64,000 nucleotides of DNA from a virus, in IMG/VR virus record IMGVR_UViG_3300017605_000635, positions 5,750 to 69,749 of that record; one strand, given 5' to 3'. The notes beneath the pieces are model-generated. The model was not told the DNA's origin. It saw nothing but the letters and a program-made list of their open reading frames with translations, and did not search any database. Position 1 is the first letter of the stretch. Every line of letters starts with the position of its first letter. Position numbers and translations under genes: made by a program. Of the stretch, positions 6,669 to 51,375 are shown in pieces.

Positions 6669-6676
6669 GAGTCCCA

Positions 6677-8047: not shown

Positions 8048-8056
8048 AGGATCAAC

Positions 8057-8826: not shown

Positions 8827-10391
8827 CCCAAGAGCTTCGCTACTTCACCGTCTTGGCCGAGACCTCGGGGGCACGGCTGGCGGTGTATCAGGGCTCCGAC
8901 CACTACGTCATCCCAGTGGTGATGTTGGTCGAGGGTGTAGTTAACGCGGCAAATGGCCCTGGGCCGGAGCTTGTCCTGGCGAGCGAATATGGTTCATGTC
9001 CCTCGGGATGGAACGGGAGACCGGTCTGCGGCGGACATCCGAAGATCAACGGAGAGTTCGTTTCCGCCAATTCTCCCTCGGTCCTCGAACGAGAATCGTT
9101 TGGACAAATTTTTAACGCGGAGGTTGACTCCGAAGAGCAGTTGGTCGGAGAAGCGTGGATCAACATCGCGGCCGCAGAGAAGAACGACGTTGGGATCAGC
9201 GTCCTTCGACGAATCAAGGAGAAGACGCCGATTGAAATCTCGGTCGGCGCCATGATCAGTCGGGAGAAGACCTCAGGCAAATACAAGGGAGCCAACTACG
9301 TCAGCATCTGGCGTGATCCGGTTCCCGATCACTTGGCCCTTCTCGAAGAGGGGTCAGAGGGGGCATGTAGCCTCAAGATGGGGTGCGGCGCATTGCGCGC
9401 AGCGGAGGGAGCAATGACCGAGAAGGAAACACCCGGGCTGCGAGAGCGGTTGTCCGCATTTCTCAAGAGCCTCGGGCTCAACGTCTCCCGCGAGGAGATG
9501 ACCAATGGGCAGATTGAGCAAGCACTCGACGCAGCTGCTCGGGCGAAAATCCCTGGGTATGGATGGATTGCCTCGTTCCAACCGTTCCAGAAGACGGTTG
9601 TATGCGTGGTAATGCCGGAAGACCGGATGTACCTCCTGCAGTATTCGTACAAGATTGCGCCTGACGGCACCGCTTCTCTCGGAGACGAGGGCACGGAGGT
9701 CGAGCCCGTCACGCGTTACGAGCCTGTTGCGGCCCAAGGGGTAAAGCCGCCAGCGGAAGACCGACCAACCCCAACAATAGCAGCCGCATCATGTGGCTGT
9801 GCCAAACAAGGAGAGAATGCAATGACGAAGGCGCAGCGCATTGACGCGCTCATCGCAGCTGGCCGGTTTGTGAAGAAGGATTCCGCGTGGTTGGAGCACG
9901 TGCCCGACGAACGGCTCACCGAACTCCTCCACGAGACGGCCACCGCTCCGGCTCCGGTCTCGGCTCCCCCGGCACCTCCCGCTGTGGCAGCGGCTCCGGC
10001 CCAGGCTCCGGCCCAGGCTCCGGCTCCGATTGCGGCTCCGGTGGCACCGGTGGCCCAGCCGGTGGCTGCGTCGGCTCGGACGGTCGAACAGGTCTTCGCG
10101 GAGGTCGGAGACCCGGTGGTCCGCGAGGAACTCAAGGCTGCGCACACGGCGATGGTGGCCGCTCGCACGGCCAAGATCACCGCGCTCAAGGCGACCAATC
10201 GCTGCAAGTTCTCCGATGAAGAACTCGGGAATTTCTCCGCAGCGCAGTTGGACCGTCTCCTCGAACTGTCGGCGGTGCCGGCTCCGGTTCCGTCGTATGC
10301 GGGTGCCTCAGGGGTTCCCGTCGTTGCCGCCTCGGACGACAATATCCCGGAGGCTCGGTCTATCACGGAAGCGTTCCCCCGGTCGGCGTAG
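8823..10391 (+). CDS. Prohead protease / scaffold fusion (DUF2213-like)
   Basis: WNGRPVCGGHP, IEISVG, PDHLALL, GACSLKMGCG; Pro/Ala-rich scaffold C-terminus; lies upstream of capsid genes. Confidence 0.8.
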   Translation: MTQELRYFTVLAETSGARLAVYQGSDHYVIPVVMLVEGVVNAANGPGPELVLASEYGSCPSGWNGRPVCGGHPKINGEFVSANSPSVLERESFGQIFNAEVDSEEQLVGEAWINIAAAEKNDVGISVLRRIKEKTPIEISVGAMISREKTSGKYKGANYVSIWRDPVPDHLALLEEGSEGACSLKMGCGALRAAEGAMTEKETPGLRERLSAFLKSLGLNVSREEMTNGQIEQALDAAARAKIPGYGWIASFQPFQKTVVCVVMPEDRMYLLQYSYKIAPDGTASLGDEGTEVEPVTRYEPVAAQGVKPPAEDRPTPTIAAASCGCAKQGENAMTKAQRIDALIAAGRFVKKDSAWLEHVPDERLTELLHETATAPAPVSAPPAPPAVAAAPAQAPAQAPAPIAAPVAPVAQPVAASARTVEQVFAEVGDPVVREELKAAHTAMVAARTAKITALKATNRCKFSDEELGNFSAAQLDRLLELSAVPAPVPSYAGASGVPVVAASDDNIPEARSITEAFPRSA

Positions 10392-10436
10392 TAGGCCCAG
10401 TCAGCACAGATCAACTGCATTACAAGGAGAGACCAG

Positions 10437-10856
10437 ATGGCGAAGCGTATCATCAAGCTGCTGGGCGAGCCGGTTCAGGATGAGGACCGTCAGGCCGCAG
10501 TAGCCATCACGCCGGGCATGTTGCTCGACATCGACAGCAACGGAGACCTCATCCCCGCCAATTCGGCGGGAGGCTACTTCGAGCGCATGTTCGCGCTCGA
10601 ACGGGAAGAGATGGGCAACGACATTGACGAGGTCTATGCAATCGGAGACACCGTCAAGGCTGGTCGGTTCCCTCCCGGCACTCGTGTTCTCGTCCTGATT
10701 CCCTCGGGGCAGAACATCCAGGATGGCGAGTATCTCGAAGCAGGCGCCACGGCAGGAATGCTCCGTGCGTATGCGGCGGGCACTCGCATCGCTCGTTCGC
10801 TCGAAGACGTAGGCGCGGTCATTTCGACCACGCGCCTGCGTGCCGTCGTCGTGTAG
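10437..10856 (+). CDS. Capsid decoration/cement protein
   Basis: AITPGMLL motif; sits between protease and MCP; 139 aa. Confidence 0.7.
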   Translation: MAKRIIKLLGEPVQDEDRQAAVAITPGMLLDIDSNGDLIPANSAGGYFERMFALEREEMGNDIDEVYAIGDTVKAGRFPPGTRVLVLIPSGQNIQDGEYLEAGATAGMLRAYAAGTRIARSLEDVGAVISTTRLRAVVV

Positions 10857-10898
10857 TCAGGGCTCAACTCGGTTCACGAACTTTCAAGGAGAACAGAT

Positions 10899-11927
10899 AT
10901 GGGAATGCAGGCACTGAGCTCTGCGCCGCTCGACAACGGCAATAGCTTCATGCGGGGAGCCGTTGGCAAGTGGGCGGGAGAGCGTTTCTTGGCGGCCTTC
11001 AAGGCTGGCCGTCCGATGAGCCCCAAGGAGCTTCGGACCAATGACCTCCTCCGCAAGGATGAGTTCCTCTTCTTCGACAAGGAACTCATCGAGGAAGCCA
11101 AGATCAGGCTCCGAGGCGTCGCAGACCTTCTCGCTGCCGGACTCGTCAAGCGTGTCCCAAACGGACTCGCCAAGACGGTGTACGAGTGGACGAAGGTCAC
11201 GGACATGGACCCGGCCACGGTCTCGCTGGACGCGGTGACGCGCAGTGAGAACGACCGGGTTGAGTTCGAACTCGACGGATTGCCCCTGCCGATCACGCAC
11301 AAGGACTTCTATCTCAACATCCGCGAACTCGAAGCCAGCAAGACGATGGGCTTCGAGGCGTTGGATACGGTCCACGTGCGCGTCGCAGGTCGCAAGGTTG
11401 CCGAGACGACCGAGGACATGCTCTTCAACGGCGGGAAGACATTCGCAGGTCGGACCATCTACGGCTACACGACGCATCCTGACCGGCTCACGGTCGGATT
11501 CGGAACGGGCGGCAACTGGGGCGCTGGCGGCAAGACCGGAGAGCAGATGCTCACCGACATCCAGACGGCCATTTCCCTCCTCGAAGCCAACCGCATGTAT
11601 GGCCCATACTGGGCCTATGTCGGAGCGGATGCGTCCGTTCCGCTCGGCAGCGATTTCAAGGCGCAGTCCGACAAGACCATCCGGGCTCGACTCCTCGAAG
11701 TCGACGGACTTCAGCGCATCCGCGTAGCGGACAAGCTGGCCGACGGCAACCTCATCGTTGTCCAGGCAACCTCCGACGTGGTCTCCATGGTCGAGGGTGA
11801 ACCGCTTCAGACGGTCCAGTGGGACCTGTACGGTGGAATGCAGATCAACTTCAAGGCATTCCAGATTCTCGTTCCGATGATCCGTGTCGATGCGCAGGGA
11901 CGCAGCGGCATCGTCCACATGTCGTAG
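10899..11927 (+). CDS. Major capsid protein, HK97 fold, encapsulin/linocin-like
   Basis: LPLPITHKDFYLNIRELEAS, IYGYTTHP, MYGPY motifs; position; strong SD. Confidence 0.85.
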   Translation: MGMQALSSAPLDNGNSFMRGAVGKWAGERFLAAFKAGRPMSPKELRTNDLLRKDEFLFFDKELIEEAKIRLRGVADLLAAGLVKRVPNGLAKTVYEWTKVTDMDPATVSLDAVTRSENDRVEFELDGLPLPITHKDFYLNIRELEASKTMGFEALDTVHVRVAGRKVAETTEDMLFNGGKTFAGRTIYGYTTHPDRLTVGFGTGGNWGAGGKTGEQMLTDIQTAISLLEANRMYGPYWAYVGADASVPLGSDFKAQSDKTIRARLLEVDGLQRIRVADKLADGNLIVVQATSDVVSMVEGEPLQTVQWDLYGGMQINFKAFQILVPMIRVDAQGRSGIVHMS

Positions 11928-11931
11928 TTCG

Positions 11932-11969
11932 TCGAGGGTCGAGGCGGAAACGTCTCGACCTTTCCTCGA
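11932..11969 (+). terminator. Stem-loop after MCP (GAAA tetraloop)
   Basis: ggtcgaggcg-gaaa-cgtctcgacc-ttt, extended by tcgagg/cctcga. Confidence 0.65.
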
Positions 11970-11981
11970 AGGGAGAGTGCA

Positions 11982-12308
11982 ATGCCAGCTCAGAAAGCGT
12001 ATCTTGTGAAAGAAGGGAAGACTCACTATACCCGCGAGGAGGGTGTCCTCGTGGCACACGGTCCTGGCGACCCGGTCATGCTGACCGAGGCGCAATTCAA
12101 CGTCTGGAAGGACAAGTTCGAGGACCCATCCGCCGAAGCAGTGCGGCAGGACCGTCAGCGAGCCCGGCAGGCCAAGGCGGATGAGGCCGCAGCGGCCGCA
12201 GCCGGCAAACCGGCGTCCACCACCGGTCTCGCACAAGACGAGAAGGCGAAGACTCCGGCGCACGCGAACCCGGAGAAGGCGGAAGCTCCGAACCTCAAGA
12301 AGACGTAA
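11982..12308 (+). CDS. Hypothetical protein downstream of MCP
   Basis: SD GGAGA; Ala/Lys-rich tail. Confidence 0.7.
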   Translation: MPAQKAYLVKEGKTHYTREEGVLVAHGPGDPVMLTEAQFNVWKDKFEDPSAEAVRQDRQRARQAKADEAAAAAAGKPASTTGLAQDEKAKTPAHANPEKAEAPNLKKT

Positions 12309-12328
12309 CAGAAGGACTCCCGGTCACT

Positions 12329-12721
12329 ATGGCAACCTACACCTACACGGCGTCAATCCCGACGGACAAAGACTTCGTGCGCCTCTGGGCGGGTGACCGG
12401 GACATTTCTGGCGGAGCGACAACGGCCGTTCTGTCAGACCAAGAGATTGCGGCGATACTCGCGGAAGCCTCGGGCAAGTGGTGTGCAGCGGCTGACGCCA
12501 TCGAGATGATGCGGTCGAAGCTCGCACTGAACCAGGCTGCAGGCGGTCTCCTCATTGAGAAGCAAGTGGAAGACCTCCGCGAACGGTTTTCGGATGCGGG
12601 TGTTTCGGGAGAGAATGCCGACAAAGCACTGGCTGCATATGTTATCTATCTGCGGACTCGATGCGCTCGGCTCTCTTCGAAACGACCCTACATGTTTCGA
12701 GTGATGCGGCGGAGACCCTAG
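12329..12721 (+). CDS. Head-tail adaptor
   Basis: DFVRLWAGD...LSDQEI pattern; position. Confidence 0.7.
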   Translation: MATYTYTASIPTDKDFVRLWAGDRDISGGATTAVLSDQEIAAILAEASGKWCAAADAIEMMRSKLALNQAAGGLLIEKQVEDLRERFSDAGVSGENADKALAAYVIYLRTRCARLSSKRPYMFRVMRRRP

Positions 12722-13086
12722 TGGCAGGCTCTCTCATTCCAACGCTCCTCGATTTTTTCCCCGACACCGTGGTCGTGGAGAAATGGCTGTCGAGCGATGA
12801 CAACGGAACGGATACGTGGGATGTTGCGCACCCAATCAACGTTCCCGCCCGGGTCACGCTGAGCATGCGAACGGAGCGAGGAGCCGGAGGTGATGAACAT
12901 ACGGTTCGAGACCTCCACTTTGTAACGGCAGGCGTGTACAACCTCGACTCAAAGGACCGATTCACGCTCCCGGTGCGGTTCTCCCTCGACAAGTCGGGTT
13001 CCCTTGCGTCGCGTCAACCTCGGGCTCGAAGCGTGACGCAGAAGTCGGATGAGAACGGCCCTCATCACGAGAAGGTATATTTTTGA
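12721..13086 (+). CDS. Head closure / head-tail joining protein
   Basis: GTG overlapping the previous stop; DRFTLP and DENGPHHEKVYF C-terminus typical of the family. Confidence 0.65.
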   Translation: MAGSLIPTLLDFFPDTVVVEKWLSSDDNGTDTWDVAHPINVPARVTLSMRTERGAGGDEHTVRDLHFVTAGVYNLDSKDRFTLPVRFSLDKSGSLASRQPRARSVTQKSDENGPHHEKVYF

Positions 13087-14162
13087 TCCATCTCTCCTCT
13101 CCCTCGTTGGTTGGCCGAGAGCGTGAATACGTTCTCGATTGCCTCGACCGAGAGGAACTGTCCTCTGTCGGGTGTTATGTCTCCCGATTTGAGAAGGAGT
13201 TCGCCAAGTTCACGGATTCAACGTATGCTGTCGCGTGTTGCAATGGGACCGCTGCGCTCCATCTTGCGATTCTTTCAACGGGAATCCGCCCGGGGGACAA
13301 GGTTCTTCTCCCAGCGTTGACCTACGTGGCGACGGCAAACGCGGTGCGATATTGTGGGGGAATCCCCATATTTTGTGACGTAGACCCCAAAACGTGGTGT
13401 TTAGACCCAAACGATGTGGTTCGACACCTCAAATCCGGGGTCAAAGCCTCAATCATTCTCCCGGTGCATCTCTACGGGGTTGTCTGTGATATGACGGCTC
13501 TCGGGCGGATTGCGAAAGCCTACGGGTGTTTCTTAGTCGAGGACGCTGCCGAGGCACACGGAGCGGAGTGGGAGGGACATCGTGTTGGTGGTATATCCGA
13601 CCTCGGAGTGTTCTCCTTCTATGGGAACAAGCTCGTGTCCTCCGGAGAAGGAGGCATGGTTGTTACAGACTCGGTGGGCGCCAATGAAGTTATGCGGCTC
13701 CATCGAGGTCAGGGTGTTTCCGCCGGGAATCGTTACTATCACTCCGTCATCGGGTACAACTATCGACTTACGAACATCCAGGCCGCCATTGCGCTTGGGC
13801 AGCTAGAGACGTTGGGCCAACGACTCGTTGCCCATCGACGGGTAGCCGACTATTATCGGGCTCGACTCTCCGAGTTCGAGACCCAGGACACGTACGAGAA
13901 TACCACGCGGGTCGACTGGTTGTTTGCCCTCCTCGTGCCCGAGGGCGTGGACCGAGACCGGGTGGCGGAGCGGATGAAGGAGAAGGGAATCGAGACCCGA
14001 CCGGTGTTCATCCCGATGACCCAACTCCCGATGTATATGGCTCCCACGCCGGAGAACGCGCAGCGGATAGCCTCCAGAGGGTTGTGTTTGCCGACGCACG
14101 CAGGCTTGTCAGAGGAAGACATTGAAACGGTAGTGTCAGGATTCCAAGAGGTGGTGCAGTGA
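13083..14162 (+). CDS. DegT/DnrJ/EryC1/StrS PLP aminotransferase (perosamine-synthase-like)
   Basis: NGTAALHLA, PVHLYG, EDAAEAHG, FSFYGNK (PLP Lys), GEGG, GYNYRLTNIQAA. Confidence 0.95.
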   Translation: MIHLSSPSLVGREREYVLDCLDREELSSVGCYVSRFEKEFAKFTDSTYAVACCNGTAALHLAILSTGIRPGDKVLLPALTYVATANAVRYCGGIPIFCDVDPKTWCLDPNDVVRHLKSGVKASIILPVHLYGVVCDMTALGRIAKAYGCFLVEDAAEAHGAEWEGHRVGGISDLGVFSFYGNKLVSSGEGGMVVTDSVGANEVMRLHRGQGVSAGNRYYHSVIGYNYRLTNIQAAIALGQLETLGQRLVAHRRVADYYRARLSEFETQDTYENTTRVDWLFALLVPEGVDRDRVAERMKEKGIETRPVFIPMTQLPMYMAPTPENAQRIASRGLCLPTHAGLSEEDIETVVSGFQEVVQ

Positions 14163-14704
14163 TGTCAGTATCTTCCGAGCAGCACGATTTGTACGTCAAA
14201 TTCGCAAATAGGAATTACGGGCAACCGGGAGAGCCTGAACTCCATCAACCAATTGTGATGCTTCGAGACTGGATGATTAAGATTGACCCTACGTCTCGGG
14301 TCGATGCGTTCACGAAGCTCGAAGGCGGAGAAGGAATCACGATTGGCCGTTACGTTCATATTGCGTCGTTTGCCCACATCAACATCGGCGGAGGTCGAAC
14401 GATTATCGGAGACTACTGTAACGTTTCGAGCGGAGGAAAGATCATCAGCGGGAGTAACAAACCTGCGGGTAAGAGTCTTTCAGCGATGGCTCCTGCAGAC
14501 ATGCAAGTCATCGAACGGAAGACGACAACGCTTGAACCGTATTCATGCGTGTTCACCGGCGCCACCGTTCTTCCTGGGGTGACTTTAGGTGAGGGAGCGG
14601 TCTTAGGCGCGATGTCTCTTGCTACTCATGATATTCCTCCGTGGGAGATTTGGGCGGGGGTTCCGGCTCGAAAGATTCGGACAAGAACTCGACCATGCGA
14701 ATAG
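14159..14704 (+). CDS. Hexapeptide-repeat (left-handed beta helix) acyltransferase
   Basis: ITIGRYVHI, VLPGVTLGEGAVLGAMS, IWAGVPARKIR. Confidence 0.9.
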   Translation: MMSVSSEQHDLYVKFANRNYGQPGEPELHQPIVMLRDWMIKIDPTSRVDAFTKLEGGEGITIGRYVHIASFAHINIGGGRTIIGDYCNVSSGGKIISGSNKPAGKSLSAMAPADMQVIERKTTTLEPYSCVFTGATVLPGVTLGEGAVLGAMSLATHDIPPWEIWAGVPARKIRTRTRPCE

Positions 14705-15393
14705 CCTTTGGCGGAATCTGGCGCGACTCCGCTGGGGGCCAAGTTGCCCGTTACTTTTCTCAAGTAGCGGCATTCCGAACGCATTTGACGGGTGACCATT
14801 ATGTTCGGGTCATTGCCGTCGAGGGAGATAGCAAGGACGATACGTGGGGTGATCTCGAACGAACAGCGGCACGTCTTCAAATACCGCTCGAACTCATAAA
14901 GTGTGACCATGGAAAGCCGAACTATGGAAGCTCTGAACTTCCTGACCGGCTCGAAGGTTGCCAGATGGTGATGCATTGCGTATATGACCATGTAAAGCCA
15001 GACGATGAGATTGTTGTTTTCGTCGAAACGGACCTTATTTGGGACCCGCACACGATTGGGACCCTCGTCGACGTGATTGATCGCCGTGAGACGGATGTGG
15101 TGGCTCCGTTTGTGATGGTTGGCCCGAACTTTTACGATATTTGGGCCTACCGGAAAGATGGAGAACGGTTTGGGCCATTCCCGCCTTACCATAAGGACTT
15201 GAAGCCAACGGGGATGACGGATGTCGACTCGGTTGGGTCCTGCGTTATCTGTCATGGAGAGGTCGCACGAACGTGCCGTGTTGCGCCGGATGCGCCGTGG
15301 GACCGTTCGTGCCTCGTTGGGTTTTGCGATACTGCCCGGTCGAAAGGCTACCGGGTCTCAGTAATGCCAGAATGGAAGATTCGACACCCATGA
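14695..15393 (+). CDS. Putative GT-A fold glycosyltransferase
   Basis: EGDSKDDT, FVETDL (DxD-like), DVVAP, FYDIWAYR, DSVGSC. Confidence 0.65.
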   Translation: MRIAFGGIWRDSAGGQVARYFSQVAAFRTHLTGDHYVRVIAVEGDSKDDTWGDLERTAARLQIPLELIKCDHGKPNYGSSELPDRLEGCQMVMHCVYDHVKPDDEIVVFVETDLIWDPHTIGTLVDVIDRRETDVVAPFVMVGPNFYDIWAYRKDGERFGPFPPYHKDLKPTGMTDVDSVGSCVICHGEVARTCRVAPDAPWDRSCLVGFCDTARSKGYRVSVMPEWKIRHP

Positions 15394-15563
15394 ACGTTCT
15401 CGACCGATTGAACGCATTCGCGGGGGAGCTTCGACGACTCGGGCTCCGGCACCCCGTCCTCGACGGGGTGGAGCCGGAGAACGTTCCTGGAGCGGTGGCG
15501 GACCAGATTGAGTTGATCCTTTCGGGATTGGCTCCGGAGACGGTAACGGGAGAACCGGCGTGA
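15390..15563 (+). CDS. Small hypothetical protein
   Basis: ATGA and GTGA overlaps on both sides. Confidence 0.55.
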   Translation: MNVLDRLNAFAGELRRLGLRHPVLDGVEPENVPGAVADQIELILSGLAPETVTGEPA

Positions 15564-16414
15564 AGGTCTTCGTTGAACCAGTGCCCGCCTCGTTGAGCCT
15601 CGCCATGTGGCGAGTTGCGAAGGCATTGAAGTCGTATGCCCCGGAGGGAATCGAGATCACCACAAACGCCTCAGAAGCGGACCTCCAGGTGTTGCATGTA
15701 ATCGGTCTAGATAGCATGGACGTTCTCAAAGCGCCACGCTACGCCGTGATCCAGTATTGCCTTTACAGCGCAAACGGGGATCATTCCGCGTGGAATCCCA
15801 TCTGGAACGATTCGGTTCTCAACTGGAGCTACTATGACCTACGTGCGCCGAGGTTCTATCGCAGCCCTCTTGGGGCAGACGAGACCTTTGTGTCCTATCA
15901 TGCGAATGGACACCGGCGTGACGTCGGGGTGGTCACGAGCGGCTATGTTAGTGGGCCGGGAGCAGAAGCGATTGAAGATGTTGCGATTGCGGCGTCTCTC
16001 GCGGGTCTTACCACTGCCCACCTTGGCCCTCGTCCGGTCGGCATGACCCAATACCCGAGGGGATGGACGTTGAAATTCGGGATTGACGATAATCAACTCT
16101 CCGACCTCTACGGAAGTGCGCGTTGGGTGAGTGGTCTCCGGCACGTCGAGGGGTTCGAGCTTCCGTGCGTCGAGGGGTTGATGTGCGGGGCTCGTCCCAT
16201 CGTCTTCGACCGTCCGGATATGCGTCGGTGGTATGAGGGGCACGCGGTCTTTGTTCCTGAGTCGAGTGGACCTTCATTGGTCAAGGAGTTGTTGAACGTT
16301 CTCCAATTCGAGCCGGAGCCGGTCTCGCGGGAAGAGTCAGAAGAAGTCAGAGCAAAGTTTGATTGGGGTCGGATTGTGTCAGGATTTTGGTCAGGAGTGT
16401 TAGCCAATGCGTAA
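15560..16414 (+). CDS. GT-B (GT4-like) glycosyltransferase
   Basis: EGFELPCVEGLMCGARPI E-x7-E signature; FDW near C-terminus. Confidence 0.8.
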   Translation: MKVFVEPVPASLSLAMWRVAKALKSYAPEGIEITTNASEADLQVLHVIGLDSMDVLKAPRYAVIQYCLYSANGDHSAWNPIWNDSVLNWSYYDLRAPRFYRSPLGADETFVSYHANGHRRDVGVVTSGYVSGPGAEAIEDVAIAASLAGLTTAHLGPRPVGMTQYPRGWTLKFGIDDNQLSDLYGSARWVSGLRHVEGFELPCVEGLMCGARPIVFDRPDMRRWYEGHAVFVPESSGPSLVKELLNVLQFEPEPVSREESEEVRAKFDWGRIVSGFWSGVLANA

Positions 16415-17612
16415 GCTACTCTGGATTGGAGATGCGGGGTGTGAGACGGGGTTCGCTAAGGCGACCCACTACATCCTCGATACGTTGCGTCACTACTGGG
16501 AGGTGACCGTCCTTGGGCTGAATTACTACGGGCACCCAGCGGCCAAGCGCAAATACCCGTATGACATCTATCCGGCGCATACGGGCACAGACTTCTTCGG
16601 GGTCAAGCAGATTCCCGCCCTCTGGGAGGAAGTTCACCCGGATGTCGTCGTGATCCAGAATGACCCTTGGAACTTTCCGGCCTATCTCTATCGGCTGAAG
16701 GGTGTGCCGGTCGTCGGAGGGGTGGCGGTCGACGGGTTGAACTGCCAAGGCCAATCACTCAACGGGTTGAGTCTTGCGGTCTTTTGGACCGAGTTCGGAC
16801 GCTATGAGGCGAGTCTCGGAGGCTATCGTGGCCCCAGCGCGGTGATTCCCCTCGGAGTCGACCGAACCATCTACAAACCGTTGGACCGTCAGCAGTGCCG
16901 TCGAGAGATGGGCATTCTCCCTCGGTTCCAAGATGCCTTCATCGTCATGGCGGTCGGACGGAACCAACTTCGGAAACGACTCGATTTGACCATCCGCTAC
17001 TTTGCCGCGTGGGTGAAGAAGTATCAGCCCGACAACGCAGTGCTTTACCTCCACGCGGCTCCGACCGGTGAGCAGGCCGTGGACCTGCACCAACTCGGAG
17101 GCTACTATGGCGTCATGAACCAGATGATCGTCGCAGAGCCCGAGGCGTTCCACGGTATGACGGAGGAACGGCTCCCGGTTCTCTACAATTGTGCCGACCT
17201 CGGGTTCAGCACCTCGCAAGGAGAGGGGATGGGGCTCCCGGCGCTGGAGATGATGGCGTGCGGCGTGACGTCGATTCTCCCAGCGAACGCAGCCTATTCA
17301 GATTGGGCGCCAGACGGGGCTCTCCTCGTTCCGTGTACGTCGACCTCGATCACGGTTCCTTCCGCCTCTCCAATCAACGTGATCGGCTCGATCATGGACG
17401 AAGATATGGCGGTGGAGACGTTACAAGCGGCTTACTCCAATAAGGCCAAGCTCTCTGATTGGTCGATGCGAGCGTTTGAGCTTGCTTCTGACCCTCGGTT
17501 CGATTGGCGTGTCATCGGAGAGAAGTGGAACGTTGGAATCAACGAGGCCATCCAACTCCGTGAGATGTTCAAGAAGAAACAAGAAGCTCGGGAGGCAGCG
17601 GCCAATGCCTAA
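16407..17612 (+). CDS. GT4 glycosyltransferase
   Basis: TGFAK, IPLGVD, VGRNQLRKR, GEGMGLPALEMMACG, FDW. Confidence 0.9.
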   Translation: MRKLLWIGDAGCETGFAKATHYILDTLRHYWEVTVLGLNYYGHPAAKRKYPYDIYPAHTGTDFFGVKQIPALWEEVHPDVVVIQNDPWNFPAYLYRLKGVPVVGGVAVDGLNCQGQSLNGLSLAVFWTEFGRYEASLGGYRGPSAVIPLGVDRTIYKPLDRQQCRREMGILPRFQDAFIVMAVGRNQLRKRLDLTIRYFAAWVKKYQPDNAVLYLHAAPTGEQAVDLHQLGGYYGVMNQMIVAEPEAFHGMTEERLPVLYNCADLGFSTSQGEGMGLPALEMMACGVTSILPANAAYSDWAPDGALLVPCTSTSITVPSASPINVIGSIMDEDMAVETLQAAYSNKAKLSDWSMRAFELASDPRFDWRVIGEKWNVGINEAIQLREMFKKKQEAREAAANA

Positions 17613-17997
17613 GAGTGGCATCACGTGGGATTCGACCGAGATGACGGTCAAGTGCGCTTCCATTCGGAGCAAAATCCCGGATGTCGCAGGTCGAGCCCTC
17701 TACGATGAATTGGAGGAGGTCGAAGTCCCGGAGTGTCAGGCGGAGGTTCCGTATTTGACAGGAGCCCTCCACGATACGATTCGGGTTGAAGGTCCGTTCT
17801 TCAACCATGGGTGGATTTCGGCCAACATCGTCGCAGGAGACGACACTGTCAACTACGCGATTCCGGTTCACGAAGACCTCGACCGGTTTCACCCGCACGG
17901 CAAGGCGAAGTTCATCCAAGACCCTCTCTTTGCGAGCCGACCGTTCATTGGGGCTCGGATTGCGGAACGTATGCACTTCTCGACGTGGAGCATCTAA
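17605..17997 (+). CDS. HK97 gp10-like neck/tail completion protein
   Basis: VPYLTGALHDT, YAIPVHE, GKAKFI. Confidence 0.75.
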   Translation: MPKSGITWDSTEMTVKCASIRSKIPDVAGRALYDELEEVEVPECQAEVPYLTGALHDTIRVEGPFFNHGWISANIVAGDDTVNYAIPVHEDLDRFHPHGKAKFIQDPLFASRPFIGARIAERMHFSTWSI

Positions 17998-18410
17998 TGC
18001 CGTGGTTGGATGATCTCAAGACCGTCCTCTCAACGGCTCTCGTCCTCGGGAGTTCGTCCATCCTCAAATCGACTGAGGCGGACATCCCCTCGGATGCACG
18101 GTCGTACATTATGATTCGGGCAACAGCGGGAGCCGGGAACGAGCGCACGCACAATAGTGCGCCGCAACCGGCCTACGAATACCCGGGAGCCCAATTGACC
18201 TTCGGAGCGAGCACCTCACCGGCAGCAGAGCTATTAGCACAGTCAGCAAAACGTGCGTTCCATGCGATACGCGATCAGGTCATTGGTTCGACCTACATTC
18301 GTGAGATTCGAGCGTTGCAGGAACCTTTTGACGGAGGTTCGGACAAGAATCAACGACCGACGTACAAACTCAATGTGATCGGCTGTCGCAGGCCGGAAGG
18401 AGTCTCCTAA
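17997..18410 (+). CDS. Tail terminator-like protein
   Basis: Precedes the tail tube; YEYPGAQL, IRALQEPF..G.D...RP. Confidence 0.7.
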   Translation: MPWLDDLKTVLSTALVLGSSSILKSTEADIPSDARSYIMIRATAGAGNERTHNSAPQPAYEYPGAQLTFGASTSPAAELLAQSAKRAFHAIRDQVIGSTYIREIRALQEPFDGGSDKNQRPTYKLNVIGCRRPEGVS

Positions 18411-18865
18411 TGGGCGTAAATGCCAAGAGTTCACACGGAACACTAATCGACGTTCAGCTCACGCCGGGTGGGGCGTTCACCGTCATTTCCGAAATCGGGG
18501 ACATCGACAACATCGGAACGATGAGGAACGAGACCGATGTCACGGTGCACAACGAGGACATCGACACGTACATCCTCGGAGTCATGCGCCGCGCAGCGGC
18601 TGGGTTCCCGGTCAACTGGGTGGCCGCAGACCCGTCGCACCAGGGTATGTTGACCCTGCACTACAACAACACCGTCACCGGCTGGCGCGTGCGTCATCCG
18701 GACGGTCGAGTCCTCATCTTCTCGGGCGGCATCGCGAACATGGGCGAGCCGGCACCGGTCGATGGCGCGATTCGCCGCAACGTCTCGATTCGACCCTCGG
18801 GGCTCTTCAGTTACAACGGAGCCATCGTTGGTCAGGTCGGCACGCCGTTCGTCTACCCGGTGTAG
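18410..18865 (+). CDS. Major tail tube protein
   Basis: HGTL, DVTVH, VNW..DPSHQ, IRPSG motifs; upstream of chaperones and tape measure. Confidence 0.8.
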   Translation: MGVNAKSSHGTLIDVQLTPGGAFTVISEIGDIDNIGTMRNETDVTVHNEDIDTYILGVMRRAAAGFPVNWVAADPSHQGMLTLHYNNTVTGWRVRHPDGRVLIFSGGIANMGEPAPVDGAIRRNVSIRPSGLFSYNGAIVGQVGTPFVYPV

Positions 18866-18896
18866 TTGGACCTTCGGTTCCAGTCAGAGAAGTCAG

Positions 18897-19142
18897 ATGG
18901 GTCAGTATCGTTTCGTGTTTTCCGCGATTGGCGGTGACGGGTGTAGGCCAGATCAGGGAGACGGTTCTCGTGTCTTTGGTTGTGGCCTACGCTCGTGCCC
19001 CGATTGTGAGATGAGAGCGTTCGTGCAGACAATGCGGGTGATGGGTCAGCGCGTCCAAGAGGCGTTGCTGATCCATTCACCCGGACAGCCGGATCAGGTG
19101 ATTGATAATCTTCTGACCCGGATTCGGAACGGCAACCCGTAG
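18897..19142 (+). CDS. Small Cys-rich hypothetical protein (GCG...CPDC)
   Basis: ATG 18897; fills the gap between tube and chaperone. Confidence 0.6.
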   Translation: MGQYRFVFSAIGGDGCRPDQGDGSRVFGCGLRSCPDCEMRAFVQTMRVMGQRVQEALLIHSPGQPDQVIDNLLTRIRNGNP

Positions 19143-19152
19143 CAGGAGGTCA

Positions 19153-19701
19153 GTGATGTCAGAATCGCAGGCAGTTACTACCGAAGACTTGAAAGCTATT
19201 CCCGTCCCCAAGGAGCTTCCCGGAGGTCCACCCATCGGAGAGCTTCCCAGACCTATTCTGGTTGGACCGCCGGAGACCGAACTCGAAACGCTCTCCCTCG
19301 ACGAACTGTTTGCCGTCAAGGATGTCCGGTTCGAGACGTTCACCTGCGGGCTCTGGCCTAAGCCGGTGACCATCGGGAGCTTGTCCTCCCGGCTCCTCAA
19401 CGAGTTGATGGCGGAGCGAGACCGGATGGGTGACGGCCACGAGGAACGTCGCAAGATGTTCGGTTACAAGGCCATCGCCCACTCGTGGATTCAGCCCGAT
19501 GGCAAGCGTATCCCCGAAGAGAAGATTGGGGTTGTAGCGGAGTTGTTCCGAGAGAAAGACTCCAAGCACGTTGACGCCCTCGCAGAACGAGTCATGGAAC
19601 TCAACGGCGTGAACGTCAAGAACGACCTCATAAAAAACGTCTCCAGCGGGATGACACTCGCCGGTTCGCGTTCAAGCTGGCAGCCCACTTCCGGGAAATA
19701 G
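19153..19701 (+). CDS. Tail assembly chaperone G
   Basis: SD AGGAGG; position; carries the slippery site. Confidence 0.75.
   Translation: MMSESQAVTTEDLKAIPVPKELPGGPPIGELPRPILVGPPETELETLSLDELFAVKDVRFETFTCGLWPKPVTIGSLSSRLLNELMAERDRMGDGHEERRKMFGYKAIAHSWIQPDGKRIPEEKIGVVAELFREKDSKHVDALAERVMELNGVNVKNDLIKNVSSGMTLAGSRSSWQPTSGK
19632..19638 (+). other. -1 ribosomal frameshift heptamer A AAA AAC (G to G-T)
   Basis: In-frame ATA AAA AAC; the -1 frame reads KRLQRDDTRRFAFKLAAHFREIDPDAMM into ORF 19713-20051. Confidence 0.85.
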
Positions 19702-20051
19702 ACCCGGATGCGATGATGGAGCGGATGACTCCGCTCCTTTTTCGCGAATGGATAGCCTACTCGGAGATTGAACGCTTTGGAGAAGACCGGGCGGATGTTC
19801 GTCTCGCACAACTCGAAGCTACTGTCTGGAACCTCGTTCGAGACTCGAAGAAACACCCGACTCCGTTCAAGTTCGAGCCGTATCTGAACGAGTTCTTGAT
19901 CGACATGAAGGAGAGGAAACGACACCGACAAACGGATGACCAAAAGTTCGACCTCCTGACCGAGATGCTTTTGACCTCGGTCGGAGCCTCGCAAGGTGAA
20001 GTCGTCAAACGACCGAAGGTTCAGGAGCCTACGCTCCCGATGGTAACGTAA
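19638..20051 (+). CDS. Tail assembly chaperone T portion
   Basis: RRFAFKLA and EWIAYSEIERFG.RAD.R motifs; reached by -1 frameshift. Confidence 0.75.
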   Translation, partial: RLQRDDTRRFAFKLAAHFREIDPDAMMERMTPLLFREWIAYSEIERFGEDRADVRLAQLEATVWNLVRDSKKHPTPFKFEPYLNEFLIDMKERKRHRQTDDQKFDLLTEMLLTSVGASQGEVVKRPKVQEPTLPMVT

Positions 20052-23000
20052 ATGCCTATTCCGTCTGGTGGGTCTGGTCTTAGCATTGGAACGCTCTCGG
20101 GCTCGATTGAGCTTGAGGACAATGCAAGTCGAGAACTTGAACAGTTCGAACGTCGAGTCAAATCGACCTCGACCACCCTTGGTCTCCTCGGGGATGGGCT
20201 GACGTTTGCGGGAGCGGGGCTCTCGGTCGTCGGAACGGCATTCATTGGTATTGCGAAGGAATCCGTTTCAGCCGTTACAGAACTGAACGAAGGCATCGCC
20301 AACGTTTCGACCAACGTCGAAGGAAAGCTTGGCCCGTCGATGACGGCCATCACGACGTTGATGAAGAAGGAAGTCCAGTCCATCGCCATCGAGACCGGGA
20401 AGTCCACCAAGGACATTACCAAGGGGTTGTACGAGGTCACCTCGGTCCTCGGGTACACCGGAGATACGTTCAAGCAGCTCAAAATCGCCGCGATGGCGGG
20501 CACGGCTGGGCTTTCAACGACCTCCGAGGCGTTTACCTTTCTCAACGCGGTCACCCGAGGCTACGGGGACACCTCCGAGGCGGCAACGAAGAAGGTGGCC
20601 AATCTCGGGTTCGAGGCGGTGCGTCTCGGCAAGACTACGTTCCCAGAATTGTCGTCAGCCGTCGGCAAGATGATCCCCATTGCCCATCTTGCGGGTGTCT
20701 CCCTCGAAGAGGTCTTTGGGGTCATTGCGACAGCGACCGGGGTGACCGGGAATACGTCGCAAGTCGTCACCCAAATGGTCTCGGCAATGAATGCGTTCCT
20801 CAAACCGGGAGCCGCGATGAAGCGGCTGTTCGAGGAACAGAAGGTTGCGAGTGGAGAGGCACTGATCGCAGAGAAGGGTCTCGTTGGGTCTCTCCAGTTA
20901 GTGGCGGAGTTCAGCGAGCGGACGAAGACTCCAATGATGGAGCTTCTGAAGCGCAAGGAGGCGTTTGTCCTCGCAGCTGGACTCGCAGGCGGAGCCGCAG
21001 ACTCGTTCTCAACAAAGATGATTTCAATGGGCAAGGCCGGACAGGCGTCCTCGACGGCATTGCTTGACGCCTATGAGAAGCAGACGAAGGGCGTGAACCA
21101 AGCAGGCTTTGCCTGGAAGCAGTTCCGGGTCGAGGTCGAAGTGGCGATGCAAGAACTGGGAGATGTCGTTCTTCCGGTCGTGATGAAAATTGGGCATGCG
21201 CTCCGCCCATTGTGGGAAGACATTAAAACCACAATGCATTGGTTTGAGCAGTTGCCGACGCCGATTCAAGTCATCCCCATTCTTATCGGTCCAGCCCTCG
21301 TGACGGCCGGGACTCTGATCCGCGTGTTTAGCAAGAACATGGCGACGATCATCGAGACCGGGAAGCTTGGGTGGACGTTCTTGACGGCACAGATTAACAC
21401 CAACACCGAGGCGTTGGTGGCGAATGCGGCTGCACAGAAGGCTGCGGCTCTCGGGGTTCCGTTCTCCGCTCGAAGTTCGACGGCACAAGTTGCGTCGATG
21501 GAGGCGTGGAAGGCGGGCAGCAGCGCCGAACTCCTCGGAGCCGGAGTCGTGGCGGAAGCCACTGCCTCGAAGGTCGGCATCCTCACGAAGGCGATGACCG
21601 GGCTCCGCCTCGCGGGAACAGCCGTCCTCGAAGTCTTAACTGGCCCCGTAGGGATCACCATTGCCCTCGTAACGGGCGCAGCCCTCTTGACTGGCTACGC
21701 GATTGGGTGGGATAACGTTTGGAGCGGAGTTACGAAGGTTGTGGGTGTCCTCAAGGATGCCGCCTCGTGGATAGGGGAAGTTACCGGCCTGACAACGGTT
21801 TTCAACGGGCTCTGGAAGGATACGAAGGATACGCTGGGGCTCCTCGGACAGACGTTGGGGAACGTCGCGAGCACGATGAAGAATCAGTTCATCGCCTCTT
21901 GGTTCGACTTCAAGACGATTGTCTTTGGCGTTTCAACGAGCCTCCGAGACGAACTGATCCTCAATCTCTCCATCGCAGGAGCGATGTTCGAGAAATTGAC
22001 GGGAACGATGAAGGGTTCGTTCCTCGCAGGACTCTCGGCCATTGCGGTCGAGGTTTTGACGATCAATACACCGCTTCGAGACTTCCTCGCCATTTTGGCG
22101 CTCCTCGAAAGCAAGCTCCCGGCGTGGGCGAAGAACTCCCAGGCTGCAGCGGATAGTAGTGACAAGTTGGCCGTGCAAGCGGGTCTCGCCTATGGTGCTC
22201 TCCGGCTCCAATACGAGGGGTTCAACGCTTCGGGCGCAGGACTTTCCTTCTACGATGCACAGACGAAGAAAGTCATCACGTCCGTTTCCACCTGGGACTC
22301 GATACTCCAGAAGAACCAGTTCACCCTCAACGACGCACAGACTGGCTATCGTCAATTCGGAGCTGCTGTTAAGAAGGCGGGTGATGAGATTCCCTCGCTC
22401 ACGGAGAAGCTGAAGGAATACGAGGACGAACTCAAGACCCTCGGGAAGGACGGAAAGCCGACCGCAGCACAACTGACCCAGGCGATTCAGAGCCATGCGT
22501 TCAACCCGAAGGAGCTTGCGACTTTTGCGCAAATTTCGGAGGGTGCGCTCCGTCTCTTCGAGAATCGGTTGTCGACGACAACTGCCGCCGGAAAGAAGTC
22601 CGCGACAGCGCTCAAAGAACTAAATGGAGCGATGGACGAACTGACCGAGACGCAGAAGCGTCAGGTCCAGTCCGACCTCCAGCACGGAGCCTCGGTCGAG
22701 AAAATATCTAACGCTTATCATCTCAATCAGATTGCTGTTCGGAATTACGCCGACGAACTCAAGGAACTCAAGACTGCGACGGATGATGTCTACAAGGTCT
22801 CGACGAAGTTGGCTGCTCTCGAAGACGCCCAGGACAAGGACTTCACCGTCAACTTCGTGAGGTCGAGCATCGCGAACGTCGAGAGCCGGGTCAATACCAT
22901 CGGGAAGATTTCATCCGACCTCGACGAACGCATCCTGCAATCTCGGATGACGACCTCTCAGAAGGCTATTCGGCAACTCGAACTCGAACGAGACGAGGCG

Positions 23001-50099: not shown

Positions 50100-50227
50100 C
50101 TTCCCCTCGCTAAGGTTTCGAGAGCCGTAGCAATCCGGAGGAGACTTGTGTTCATGACGAGGAGACCTCCGAGGAGTGCTCCTGCAATGAGTGAAAGGGA
50201 TACGTTGATGAGAAAGTTTTCCTTCAT
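50096..50227 (-). CDS. Small membrane protein, 43 aa
   Basis: MKENFLINVSLSLIAGALLGGLLV; ATGA overlap with the TS-like gene. Confidence 0.5.
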   Translation of the reverse strand: MKENFLINVSLSLIAGALLGGLLVMNTSLLRIATALETLARGR

Positions 50228-51331: not shown

Positions 51332-51375
51332 CTTGCTACCCTCCTTTGACGGTTGCCCTGGGTTGGTACGACGAC

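Follow-up and report, generated by a model that had tools for sequence, protein, structure and literature searches.

A set of amino-sugar and glycosyltransferase genes in an uncultured soil siphovirus is, on balance, best explained as a late-expressed virion glycosylation module. The complete genome of this phage is 69.7 kb (69,749 bases), and the window, the whole stretch of DNA that was analyzed, covers 64 kb of it. Relatives of the phage group are found as prophages within Acidobacteriota genomes, and the hosts are likely Gram-negative soil Acidobacteriota. The cassette lies on the plus strand at 13083-17612 and encodes a DegT aminotransferase, a hexapeptide acyltransferase, a GT-A glycosyltransferase, a 57-aa ORF and two GT-B/GT4 glycosyltransferases. 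It is embedded amid genes for head-to-tail joining. The features discussed are as follows.

10437-10856, plus strand: head decoration protein, candidate glycan acceptor (phrog_766, E 8e-14)
10899-11927, plus strand: HK97-like major capsid protein, candidate glycan acceptor (PF19774, 3e-21; Linocin_M18, 1.7e-9)
12661-13086, plus strand: connector-position gene, the last before the cassette (position; DUF6093-like features)
13083-14162, plus strand: predicted PLP-dependent NDP-4-keto-6-deoxyhexose 4-aminotransferase, GDP-perosamine-synthase-like (PF01041, 1e-102)
14159-14704 (start 14159 or 14162), plus strand: left-handed beta-helix (hexapeptide) acyltransferase (PF00132)
14695-15393, plus strand: GT-A fold glycosyltransferase (predicted structure, Foldseek)
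15390-15563, plus strand: 57-aa ORF, read from the sequence, filling the 167-nt gap between GT-A and GTx
15560-16414, plus strand: compact GT-B/GT4-fold glycosyltransferase, GTx (predicted structure, Foldseek, profile match)
16407-17612, plus strand: GT4 glycosyltransferase (PF13692, PF00534, phrog_2170)
17605-17997, plus strand: HK97 gp10-like neck or tail-completion protein (feature score 0.96; structure TM 0.72 to the PF04883 cluster)
17997-18410, plus strand: tail terminator (PF12691, 2e-6, on the longer ORF 17811-18410)
18410-18865, plus strand: tail tube protein, candidate glycan acceptor (PF16461, 3e-8; phrog_158 major tail protein, 1.6e-13)
49047-50447, minus strand: thymidylate-synthase-like (ThyA-like) protein (PF00303, 2.9e-19)
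51376-52251, minus strand: 5-hmdU DNA kinase (PF18723, 1e-52)

An earlier note on this DNA had described a five-gene cassette within a late structural operon. The ORF positions confirm all five genes on the plus strand, and the enzyme assignments hold as well, by family matches for the DegT, acyltransferase and GT4 proteins and by structure models with Foldseek for GT-A and GTx. The sixth ORF, of 57 aa, had been overlooked; it has no family match and no homologue by tblastn in 94 related loci, and it may not be a real gene. The note's observation that every junction is an overlapping stop and start is also correct: with the chosen start codons, the genes run on one strand from the connector-position gene to the tail tube gene, and each of the nine junctions between them is an overlap of 1-10 nt. 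The overlaps support the operon embedding that the note proposed. Promoter-like and terminator-like sites were not enriched over shuffles (4 against 3.6 expected, and 9 against 10.1).

Among the flanking genes, the gp10-like label is supported by the feature score and the structure, with no Pfam or PHROG match by HMM, and the tail-terminator label by PF12691. The label of head closure for 12661-13086 is putative, as this ORF has no Pfam or PHROG match and only a DUF6093 likeness by language-model features (score 0.94). Its homologues directly precede the cassette in relatives, and its true start may be downstream of 12661, because the relatives align only from residue 21-31. The major capsid protein also matches phrog_771 and phrog_264 and has 35% identity to the annotated capsid protein of Brevundimonas phage MaInes. 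This cultured relative has the same head-to-tail layout without any cassette-type genes; therefore, the cassette is an accessory insert that is dispensable for assembly.

The DegT protein matches PF01041 at 344 bits (cut-off 19.8), and its best solved relative is the perosamine synthetase 3bn1 (E 1.6e-94, residues 2-357). Lys183 aligns with the position occupied by Lys in 3dr7 and by Ala in 3dr4, which marks it by alignment as the predicted Schiff-base position and catalytic lysine. The metagenomic homologues closest to the protein (50-56% identity) carry the name perosamine synthetase in their source annotation, and the NCBIfam LegC model gives 323 bits, under its cut-off of 420. Perosamine synthetase and LegC enzymes both act on GDP-linked sugars. 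The acyltransferase matches PF00132 at 33.3 bits (cut-off 27) and no NCBIfam model at or above its cut-off. Its best solved relatives are 3vbp, 3vbi and 3vbn (E 2e-15 to 5e-14, residues 37-177), the last described in an excerpt of PMC6031040 as the N-acyltransferase AntD bound to CoA and dTDP ligands. AntD, the nearest, acts on a 4-amino-4,6-dideoxy sugar, and the phage enzyme probably N-acylates a 4-amino sugar. It accompanies DegT in 22 of the 23 distinct loci that bear DegT. Genes for a sugar 4,6-dehydratase or nucleotidyltransferase were not found, with PF16363, PF01370 and PF00483 unmatched at E<=0.1 across the whole 69,749-base genome, which extends the note's report of no dehydratase in the window. 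Therefore, the keto-sugar precursor must be supplied by the host, in support of the proposed dependence on a host NDP-4-keto-6-deoxy sugar.

The GT-A gene reaches just 21.8 bits with PF00535, under the cut-off of 23.3, but its structure model (pLDDT 96.5) is predicted to have a clear GT-A fold (Foldseek E 4e-13, TMq 0.70). Its top matches, at TMq 0.6-0.72, are the collagen galactosyltransferase COLGALT1, the LH3 GT domain, Mimivirus R699 and Mnn9 with GDP. D113, within an E-x-D motif, is invariant, as are G44 and D45. GTx has no match in Pfam, PHROG or NCBIfam, and its model (pLDDT 94.8) has a GT-B/GT4 fold (Foldseek E 5e-9, TMq 0.6-0.72), with GDP-mannose-bound PimA, MshA, BshA and GtfA among the matches at E about 1e-8 and a profile match to the GT4 enzyme 7qsg at 3e-7. 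E197, E200 and E205 are invariant among its homologues, of which there are 335, mainly unnamed metagenome proteins. The GT4 protein scores above cut-off with both PF13692 (31.5 bits) and PF00534 (29.9 bits), matches phrog_2170 at 2e-26 and has invariant E273 and E281. GTx is fused to this downstream GT4 in 12 of 54 distinct loci with both adjacent. Several independent hints of GDP-sugar chemistry come from these comparisons: the DegT matches, PF11735 in precomputed annotation of 27 of 74 listed GT-A family proteins (the window's own sequence included), GDP in Mnn9, GDP-mannose in PimA, and a mannosyltransferase among the fold and profile matches of the cassette glycosyltransferases.

Linkage to structural genes in relatives, set beforehand as a test of the virion reading, proved strong. 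The survey comprised 94 related loci, 75 of them distinct, and in 59 of the 75 the window's structural gene families lie on the same strand as the glycosyltransferases. Where at least 1.5 kb of sequence follows the cassette (64 loci), it runs directly into neck or tail genes in 49, and the order DegT, acyltransferase, GT-A, GTx, GT4 is kept in 19 of 75 distinct loci. Sixteen loci lack window-type structural matches; for the six of these from other lineages that were tested with PHROG, a portal, protease, capsid, adaptor or terminase gene lies near the glycosyltransferase homologue in all six, each from families other than the window's. One of these six (L084) has a full cassette flanked by a different capsid gene and a head-tail adaptor, and some relatives have methyltransferases at the cassette site. 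GT4 is retained in more of the distinct loci than any other member (67 of 75), with 44-52% identity in 14 viral loci. A pattern scan of one genome per species (185,579 species) gave two close GT4 relatives, both flanked by these structural genes, and the family looks phage-bound. Two weaker matches to GT4 lie in Acidobacteriota chromosomes (L123 and L124), and no structural genes of these families occur within 20 kb of either.

Virion glycosylation by mycobacteriophages Che8, Corndog and Myrna, attributed to Freeman et al. 2023 in excerpts of PMC12363180, PMC12619734, PMC11256854 and PMC10877033, similarly involves phage-encoded glycosyltransferase cassettes, which modify capsid and tail tube proteins. 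Corndog virions are reported to be glycosylated, and gp38 to be essential for capsid glycosylation, in an excerpt of PMC12363180. As in the window, the Corndog genes, a methyltransferase and three glycosyltransferases, stand in the head operon, between portal-region genes and the capsid gene. Corndog gp36, gp37 and gp38 gave nothing by hhalign against the cassette glycosyltransferases except 41 columns around the gp37 acidic motif. No Mycobacterium phage is among the GT4 tblastn matches, and GT-A and GTx have no match in 50,697 phage records. With no detectable homology to the Corndog glycosyltransferases, the mycobacteriophage precedent is therefore an analogy only. Unlike the mycobacteriophage cassettes, from phages of Actinobacteria, that of the window includes both an amino-sugar aminotransferase and an acyltransferase, lies between connector and neck genes, and belongs to a phage of likely Gram-negative soil Acidobacteriota. 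In cluster F1 phages, glycosyltransferases lie near the right genome end, according to an excerpt of PMC11256854.

A chemical parallel is found in Mimivirus, whose fibril glycan cluster is described in excerpts of PMC9614988 as encoding the R141 dehydratase, L136 aminotransferase, N-L142 acetyltransferase and five putative glycosyltransferases. By that account, a 4-acylamido-4,6-dideoxyhexose is made with the virus's own PLP aminotransferase and N-acetyltransferase, several glycosyltransferases serve virion-surface glycans, and the Mimivirus sugar viosamine is the C2 epimer of perosamine. Mimivirus differs in being a giant amoeba virus that uses UDP- and dTDP-sugars and has its own 4,6-dehydratase, whereas the phage depends on its host; L136 is not among the 53 solved sequences matching the phage DegT at E<=1e-20. 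The earlier claim that the sugar-biosynthesis genes go beyond known cassettes was thus overstated, given Mimivirus, the methyltransferase of Corndog and the frequency of the cassette in a large uncultured phage group.

For both tailoring enzymes, the best solved relatives (3bn1 and AntD) come from bacterial GDP-perosamine and anthrose pathways. Clusters for bacterial envelope or spore glycans also hold dehydratase, lipid-carrier and export genes, whereas the window keeps just the two tailoring steps, wired into a phage structural operon. Phage glycosyltransferases also alter a glycan in GtrABC-type O-antigen conversion, but those are membrane proteins encoded near lysogeny genes and expressed from the prophage. 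The six cassette ORFs have no membrane-spanning stretch (maximum 19-residue hydropathy <=1.55) and lie in a late operon. The cultured phages S-CBS4 and TJE1 carry a GT4 homologue (27-29% identity), in S-CBS4 with a second glycosyltransferase and a methyltransferase between portal and protease genes, and in TJE1 with nucleotidyltransferase, nucleotide-sugar epimerase and methyltransferase genes upstream of the terminase. Their accessory genes differ from the window's, with no DegT/acyltransferase pair, and the literature searched contained no glycosylation studies of either phage.

The main rival, which we consider unlikely, is a role of the cassette in remodeling the O-antigen, capsule or exopolysaccharide of the host envelope: during infection or lysogeny, lipid-linked intermediates would receive a side chain containing N-acyl-perosamine. 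The phage could gain from this by blocking superinfection or by keeping its progeny from sticking to debris. Both the aminotransferase and the acyltransferase have their closest characterized relatives in pathways for O-antigen and other envelope glycans, which counts against a virion target, and lipid-linked repeat units are typically built by GT4 and GT-A enzymes. Relatives occur as prophages in Acidobacteriota chromosomes, so the cassette could conceivably be expressed from a lysogen. Yet the genes overlap within the head-tail operon rather than standing beside an integrase or as a separately transcribed moron, their position is conserved in most distinct loci and recurs beside unrelated head modules, and, in the one-genome-per-species scan, cellular genomes almost never carry the GT4 family except in prophage contexts. 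The five enzymes, when searched, matched no polyprenyl-phosphate transferase, flippase, polymerase or GtrA/B-type family. The absence of membrane-spanning stretches also speaks against an envelope target, but it does not discriminate, because GT4 enzymes that use lipid-linked acceptors are soluble as well.

It is less probable still that the glycan is placed on a small molecule or on a phage-encoded protein that is not major in the virion, for which the candidates would be Ser/Thr-rich, signal-peptide- or lipoprotein-like products of genes lying between those for portal and protease. A hydrophobic N-terminal leader is present in both ORF 3973-4515 and ORF 4512-5123, whose C-termini are similar, Ser+Thr is 19-22% in ORFs 5124-8494, and one related locus (L010) has comparable leader-bearing ORFs just upstream of connectors and cassette. 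GtfA, a fold match of GTx, glycosylates a secreted adhesin in the cytoplasm, but GT-B fold matches say nothing of the acceptor; moreover, the leader-bearing ORFs are not conserved beside the cassette in the survey, where its universal neighbors are neck and tail genes. A DNA target, with the glycosyltransferases modifying hydroxymethyl-pyrimidines of the phage genome as happens in T-even phages and for base J, is very improbable. The phage can probably make the 5-hydroxymethyl-dU that would be used, judging from a thymidine hypermodification cluster in the window (ThyA-like protein, 5-hmdU DNA kinase, a weak radical-SAM match and a PLP enzyme), but these genes are 30 kb away on the opposite strand, in the replication module. 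PF00303 and PF18723 are both missing from three of five long cassette-bearing relatives (estimated completeness 100, 93 and 100%), including both of those with the five-gene cassette, which argues against DNA as the target. Past the kinase step, the known thymidine hypermodification pathways add amino acids or amines and are not known to add sugars.

For a glycan on the virion itself, gene position is circumstantial evidence. Capsid proteins of cassette-bearing phages have no extra C-terminal tail or Ser/Thr-rich patch relative to cassette-free MaInes, and S+T is ordinary (9-13%) in the capsid, decoration and tube proteins. We infer the identity of nucleotide and sugar, the order of transfer and, above all, the acceptor. 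Under the virion glycosylation reading, the host would provide a GDP-4-keto-6-deoxyhexose, most likely GDP-4-keto-6-deoxymannose, which the phage DegT would aminate at C4 to give a perosamine-like GDP-4-amino-4,6-dideoxyhexose, and the beta-helix enzyme would then N-acylate this sugar. Three soluble glycosyltransferases, one GT-A and a cooperating GT4 pair that is fused in some relatives, would assemble a short glycan on at least one virion protein, in the cytoplasm, during particle assembly. The cassette is a common architecture of a large uncultured phage group and is not peculiar to this genome.

A cassette of predicted amino-sugar enzymes and glycosyltransferases lies inside the siphovirus morphogenesis module on the + strand of the window. 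The source record comprises 69,749 bases with direct terminal repeats and is estimated to be 100% complete; the window represents its bases 5750-69749.

Morphogenesis module around the cassette (window positions, strand, feature)
121-1689, +, large terminase
1686-3182, +, portal
3146-8494, +, unassigned ORFs, about 5.6 kb from portal to protease
8823-10391, +, protease/scaffold-like gene
10437-10856, +, decoration protein
10899-11927, +, HK97-type capsid protein
between capsid gene and cassette, +, three small connector-position ORFs
13083-17612, +, cassette: DegT aminotransferase, hexapeptide acyltransferase, GT-A (14695-15393), 57-aa ORF (15390-15563), GTx, a probable compact GT-B/GT4-fold gene (15560-16414), and GT4 (16407-17612)
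17605-17997, +, HK97-gp10-like gene
17997-18410, +, tail terminator
18410-18865, +, tail tube
after the tail tube, +, tape measure, 1809 aa

The existence and placement of the five enzyme genes, as described in an earlier note made from sequence alone, were borne out. So were the overlapping stop/start junctions it reported, which measure 1-10 nt each from the ORF at 12661-13086 through the tail tube, given plausible start codons. Its names for the gp10-like, terminator and tube genes were supported, but its head-closure label for the upstream gene was not. The 57-aa ORF, which occupies the gap between GT-A and GTx, was absent from that description; it matches no family, and the 94 related loci contain no homologue of it. 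With the first ATG, the ORFs at 12329-12721 and 12661-13086 overlap by 61 nt, and the start of the latter is probably later, given that relatives align only from its residue 21-31. Counts from a promoter and terminator scan of 8000-21000 equal the shuffled expectation, such that the scan neither splits nor proves an operon. The G+C content is 55-63% along the window and the cassette shows no sharp compositional break. No tRNAs were found in the window, and a search of deposited phages for near-identical DNA gave no match.

Other genes of the window have features of their own. Directly after the capsid gene, 11982-12308 (+) encodes a small, charged, Lys/Pro/Ala/Thr-rich and probably disordered protein, and ORFs of like composition follow the capsid gene in four related loci (L008, L009, L013 and L019); as speculation, the product is a conceivable glycan acceptor. 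Between portal and protease, the products of ORFs 3973-4515 and 4512-5123 start like signal-peptide proteins or lipoproteins and resemble each other at the C-terminus, and therefore look like paralogues. The ORFs of 5124-8494 contain 19-22% Ser+Thr, and the one at 7142-8047 has a weak match, below cut-off, to a carbohydrate-binding beta-helix family (E 0.001). Leader-bearing ORFs of similar type precede the connectors in the related locus L010 (1-4100). On the minus strand, 42076-42996 matches the Pam3 phage gp34-like family (PF23977, 7e-31), which is named from a cyanophage protein.

The aminotransferase matches the DegT/DnrJ/EryC1 family (PF01041) at 344.3 bits against a cut-off of 19.8, covering positions 6-359 of the 360 in the profile. 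Among solved proteins, the perosamine synthetase 3bn1 is its best relative (E 1.6e-94, residues 2-357). The nearest database relatives of the aminotransferase, 50-56% identical and on phage-sized contigs, are named perosamine synthetase by their source. Lys183 aligns with a position at which two deposited forms of perosamine synthetase differ (Lys in 3dr7, Ala in 3dr4) and that we take to be the catalytic K186, the Schiff-base lysine for PLP. The best NCBIfam match is the LegC family model TIGR04181, but its score of 323.4 bits falls below the cut-off of 420 and membership of that family was rejected. Perosamine synthetase (Per/RfbE), which forms GDP-perosamine from GDP-4-keto-6-deoxymannose, and LegC both act on GDP-linked 4-keto sugars. 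Given the likeness to both, the enzyme is predicted to be a GDP-sugar C4 aminotransferase, most likely perosamine-forming.

The known substrate of AntD, an N-acyltransferase of the anthrose pathway, is a 4-amino-4,6-dideoxy sugar. The cassette acyltransferase, which scores 33.3 bits against PF00132 (cut-off 27), is nearest to the AntD chains 3vbp, 3vbi and 3vbn, with E from 2e-15 to 5e-14 over residues 37-177. Its NCBIfam matches, O-acetyltransferases among them, are all far below their cut-offs. AntD is described as crystallised with CoA and dTDP (PMC6031040). The acyltransferase is present in 22 of the 23 related loci that bear the aminotransferase, and its likeness to AntD and pairing with a DegT enzyme suggest that it would N-acylate an NDP-4-amino sugar. 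A DegT-like gene also adjoins a hexapeptide-transferase-like gene in an uncultured 595-kb phage (LR756511.1, about 116.9-118.3 kb, hits H27 and H53), so the pair occurs in huge phages as well.

The complete genome gave no match to the GDP-mannose dehydratase, NAD-dependent epimerase/dehydratase or sugar nucleotidyltransferase families, although control genomes matched in each search. Therefore, the activated 4-keto-6-deoxy precursor must be supplied by the host, as the earlier note had proposed from the lack of a dehydratase in the window.

None of the six cassette proteins has a membrane-spanning stretch. GT-A scores 21.8 bits against Pfam Glycos_transf_2, below the cut-off of 23.3, and a profile of its homologues gave nothing significant against solved sequences (best E 0.085), such that a fold search was needed. 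The GT-A model (pLDDT 96.5, from a 39-sequence alignment) matches COLGALT1 and other GT-A enzymes by Foldseek (E 4e-13, TMq 0.70). COLGALT1, a collagen galactosyltransferase that acts on protein, ranks first together with the LH3 glycosyltransferase domain, and Mimivirus R699 and Mnn9 with GDP rank lower; given that GT-A folds resemble one another, the acceptor was not read from these matches. The acidic, DxD-type metal/nucleotide motif comprises an invariant D113, in E-x-D, and also G44-D45. The homologue list for GT-A has 74 proteins, the window's own sequence among them.

GTx has no Pfam match of its own, and among the matches listed, 120 of 335 homologues, 9 carry PF00534 or PF13524. It is modelled as a compact two-domain GT-B protein (pLDDT 94.8) with fold matches that include PimA, MshA, BshA and GtfA (TMq 0.6-0.72, E about 1e-8), and its profile matches the GT4 mannosyltransferase 7qsg at 3e-7. 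Invariant residues are E197 and E205. GT4 passes two Pfam GT4 models, PF13692 (31.5 against 27) and PF00534 (29.9 against 26.4), and its invariant E273 and E281 stand eight residues apart; E-x7-E is a GT4 signature. In relatives, GTx and GT4 lie next to each other in 54 distinct loci, and in 12 of these (L004 766-2970, L015 11073-13442, L019 8897-11164 and nine further loci) they are fused into one ORF of 716-790 codons, indicating that the two work together.

A search with the GT4 protein recovered 14 viral loci at 44-52% identity, and a GTx profile found 122 viral stretches, the best 80 of which were used. A scan of one genome per species, across 185,579 species, added two close and six weak GT4 relatives. 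The linkage survey, by tblastn and by HMM profiles built from the first hits, covered 94 loci, or 75 distinct loci after near-identical copies were merged; it excluded the loci of the window itself, the records of four named phages and the six weak matches from the genome scan.

Cassette genes in the 75 distinct related loci
Aminotransferase, acyltransferase, GT-A, GTx, GT4, in the window's order: 19 of 75
The same five genes with a GT4 hit upstream, loci ending at the last gene: 3 of 75
Acyltransferase, GT-A, GTx, GT4: 6 of 75, five of which start at a contig end
GT-A, GTx, GT4: 9 of 75
GTx, GT4: 18 of 75
GT4, GTx, GT4: 2 of 75
GT-A, GT4: 1 of 75
GT-A, aminotransferase, GTx, GT4: 1 of 75
GT4 alone: 8 of 75
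GTx alone: 8 of 75

The earlier note's expectation that the cassette stays linked to structural genes in relatives held: in 59 of the 75 distinct loci, the same strand also carries structural genes that belong to the window's families. Downstream sequence of at least 1.5 kb was available for 64 loci, and in 49 of them the first recognised gene to follow within 2.5 kb is of the neck or tail. Upstream sequence was available for 49 loci, and there the recognised gene that precedes is of the head or connector in 31. This linkage spans capsid identities to that of the window down to 23%, compared with 35-52% for the GT4 homologues. The remaining 16 loci lack structural genes of the window's families. 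Six of them were tested with PHROG families, and in every one of the six the glycosyltransferase homologue has head or packaging genes from other families nearby; several of the ten outside that test end at contig ends.

Head and packaging genes in the loci tested with PHROG families
L084: portal, protease, capsid, then the full cassette, then head-tail adaptor and tape measure
L099: capsid gene 2 kb upstream
L075 and L090: portal genes
L076: terminase and portal genes
L074: head protease

In some relatives the cassette site holds alternative tailoring genes, namely methyltransferases, a B12-binding radical-SAM protein and extra GT2-type genes. L015 (5133-8901), like L017, carries a methyltransferase, the B12-binding radical-SAM protein and a 409-aa GT2-domain protein; L019 (7109-8223) carries two methyltransferases, one matching a rhamnosyl O-methyltransferase family, and L020 (9066-9998) a single methyltransferase. 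L019 also has a GIY-YIG/NUMOD3 homing-endonuclease-like gene inserted directly after its capsid gene (4600-5133). Brevundimonas phage MaInes, which is in culture, shares the module order, and its capsid protein is 35% identical to that of the window, but its capsid-to-tail interval contains none of the cassette genes.

Sequencing runs with matching content numbered six, from two studies, each with less than one fifth of the sampled words and no RNA run among them. Comparison of four runs found contigs 90-99% similar in a soil metagenome and in two wastewater libraries that are labelled RNA-Seq but are probably DNA. None of the sampled raw reads of the four runs mapped to the window stretch, which is uninformative on expression.

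Evidence on hosts comes from prophages. A GT4-family profile matched 8 of 401 sampled Acidobacteriota genomes at E<=1e-30, four of them above 400 bits, and the flanks of five were retrieved. Genome G046 (locus L120, C2:489000-508999) contains a whole portal-to-tail-tube module in the order portal, protease, decoration, capsid, two connector genes, about 0.9 kb, GT4, gp10-like, terminator and tube, such that GT4 lies between the connector and gp10-like genes. This module lies about 0.5 Mb inside a 4.36-Mb contig and is an integrated prophage. In G367, GT4 accompanies a connector-position gene, a gp10-like gene and a terminator gene, and in G166 a terminator gene only; the flanks of two weaker matches contain no structural genes of the window's families. 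Relatives of the window's own phage thus lysogenise Acidobacteriota. L020 is a less clear candidate for an integrated prophage than G046: on its 5.76-Mb contig, the flanks share no protein with the window at E<=1e-6, and an integrase is encoded 48 kb away from the contig's other end. The window's DNA polymerase has only a weak chromosomal match, in the genome of L020.

The best available reading of what the cassette glycosylates, which draws on gene context and analogy, somewhat favours the virion as the target. The Ser/Thr content of the virion proteins is ordinary, and an alignment of eight capsid proteins revealed no cassette-linked C-terminal extension. The cassette might instead remodel envelope glycans of the host, given that relatives of the tailoring enzymes are envelope-glycan enzymes and that soluble GT4 enzymes also use lipid-linked acceptors. 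However, the cassette sits inside the late operon, keeps that position over deep divergence (capsid identity to 23%) and recurs beside unrelated head modules, and outside prophage contexts the scanned cellular genomes almost entirely lack the GT4 family; we regard this alternative as unlikely. Another protein or a small molecule as the target is more improbable still.

Glycosylation of phage DNA deserves consideration given that the window itself has, among its replication genes at 49047-56298 on the minus strand, a group of genes whose predicted functions probably constitute a thymidine hypermodification pathway.

Probable thymidine hypermodification cluster (window positions, strand, feature)
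49047-50447, -, 466-aa protein with a thymidylate-synthase-like domain
51376-52251, -, 5-hmdU DNA kinase (PF18723, 1e-52)
53722-55197, -, 491-aa protein with a weak radical-SAM match
55411-56298, -, PLP-dependent enzyme

Of five long cassette-bearing relatives, two have the thymidylate-synthase-like and kinase genes, but three have neither, PF00303 and PF18723 both being absent; these three are 100, 93 and 100% complete by the record's estimate. Only two of the five relatives hold all five cassette genes, and both are among the three without the modification genes. The cassette is therefore independent of hydroxymethyl-pyrimidine DNA. The idea that it feeds thymidine hypermodification was rejected, and DNA as the target is very improbable.

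Virion glycosylation, the favoured reading, has precedents. Mycobacteriophages are reported to have glycosyltransferases of their own that glycosylate proteins of the capsid and tail tube, with Corndog gp38 and Che8 gp110 essential for this (PMC12363180, PMC12619734, PMC11256854, PMC10877033). In the papers searched, experimental phage virion glycosylation appears only for mycobacteriophages, where it is discussed as an antibody shield. Corndog, by its annotation, resembles the window in operon placement, with a methyltransferase and three glycosyltransferases between portal-region genes and the capsid gene. Its glycosyltransferases, however, lack detectable homology to those of the window: hhalign comparison with Corndog gp36-gp38 gave probabilities of 0.2-0.9%, except for gp37 at 84% over 41 columns, and no Mycobacterium phages were among the tblastn hits of the window's glycosyltransferases. 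The closest functional parallel is a virus that tailors its own 4-acylamido sugar, Mimivirus: for the viosamine-containing glycans of its fibrils it encodes five putative glycosyltransferases together with a dehydratase, a PLP aminotransferase and an N-acetyltransferase (PMC9614988). Searches of open-access papers and preprints returned no account of such a phage cassette, and neither GT-A nor GTx, two of the three glycosyltransferase families, has a counterpart in 50,697 deposited phage genomes. Relative to known phage and giant-virus virion glycosylation, the new elements are phage-encoded amino-sugar tailoring, new glycosyltransferase families and a modular, widespread locus. If the acceptor is protein, GT-A and GTx would be new protein-glycosylation tools.

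More broadly, and tentatively, tailed phages of soil bacteria might possess a modular locus dedicated to virion glycans, comparable in behaviour to an O-antigen locus in miniature. The phage-specific GT4, kept beside the neck gene, would prime a virion protein, and swappable modules would then diversify the glycan: the perosamine-type aminotransferase with the N-acyltransferase, extra GT-A copies, sugar methyltransferases and the B12/radical-SAM enzyme. Such a locus would have moved between phage lineages with unrelated head genes, always landing in the morphogenesis operon.

The window's cassette would extend virion glycosylation to phages with prophage relatives in Acidobacteriota, a Gram-negative soil phylum, to a phage's own sugar tailoring, and to a conserved yet modular locus on at least 75 distinct viral contigs. 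Such an extension would call for a function other than evading mammalian immunity, for example stabilising the particle, helping it to adhere to or pass through exopolysaccharide and soil matrix, shielding it from proteases or evading host recognition. The Global Soil Virus Atlas places GT4 among the commonest putative viral auxiliary metabolic genes and reads these as carbon-cycle functions (PMC11222151); GT4 genes within head-tail operons may serve the virion instead. If the broader reading is true, many soil-virus GT4 "auxiliary metabolic genes" would be virion-coating rather than carbon-cycle genes, and virion glycosylation would be a trait of phages in general, its ecological role having nothing to do with antibodies.
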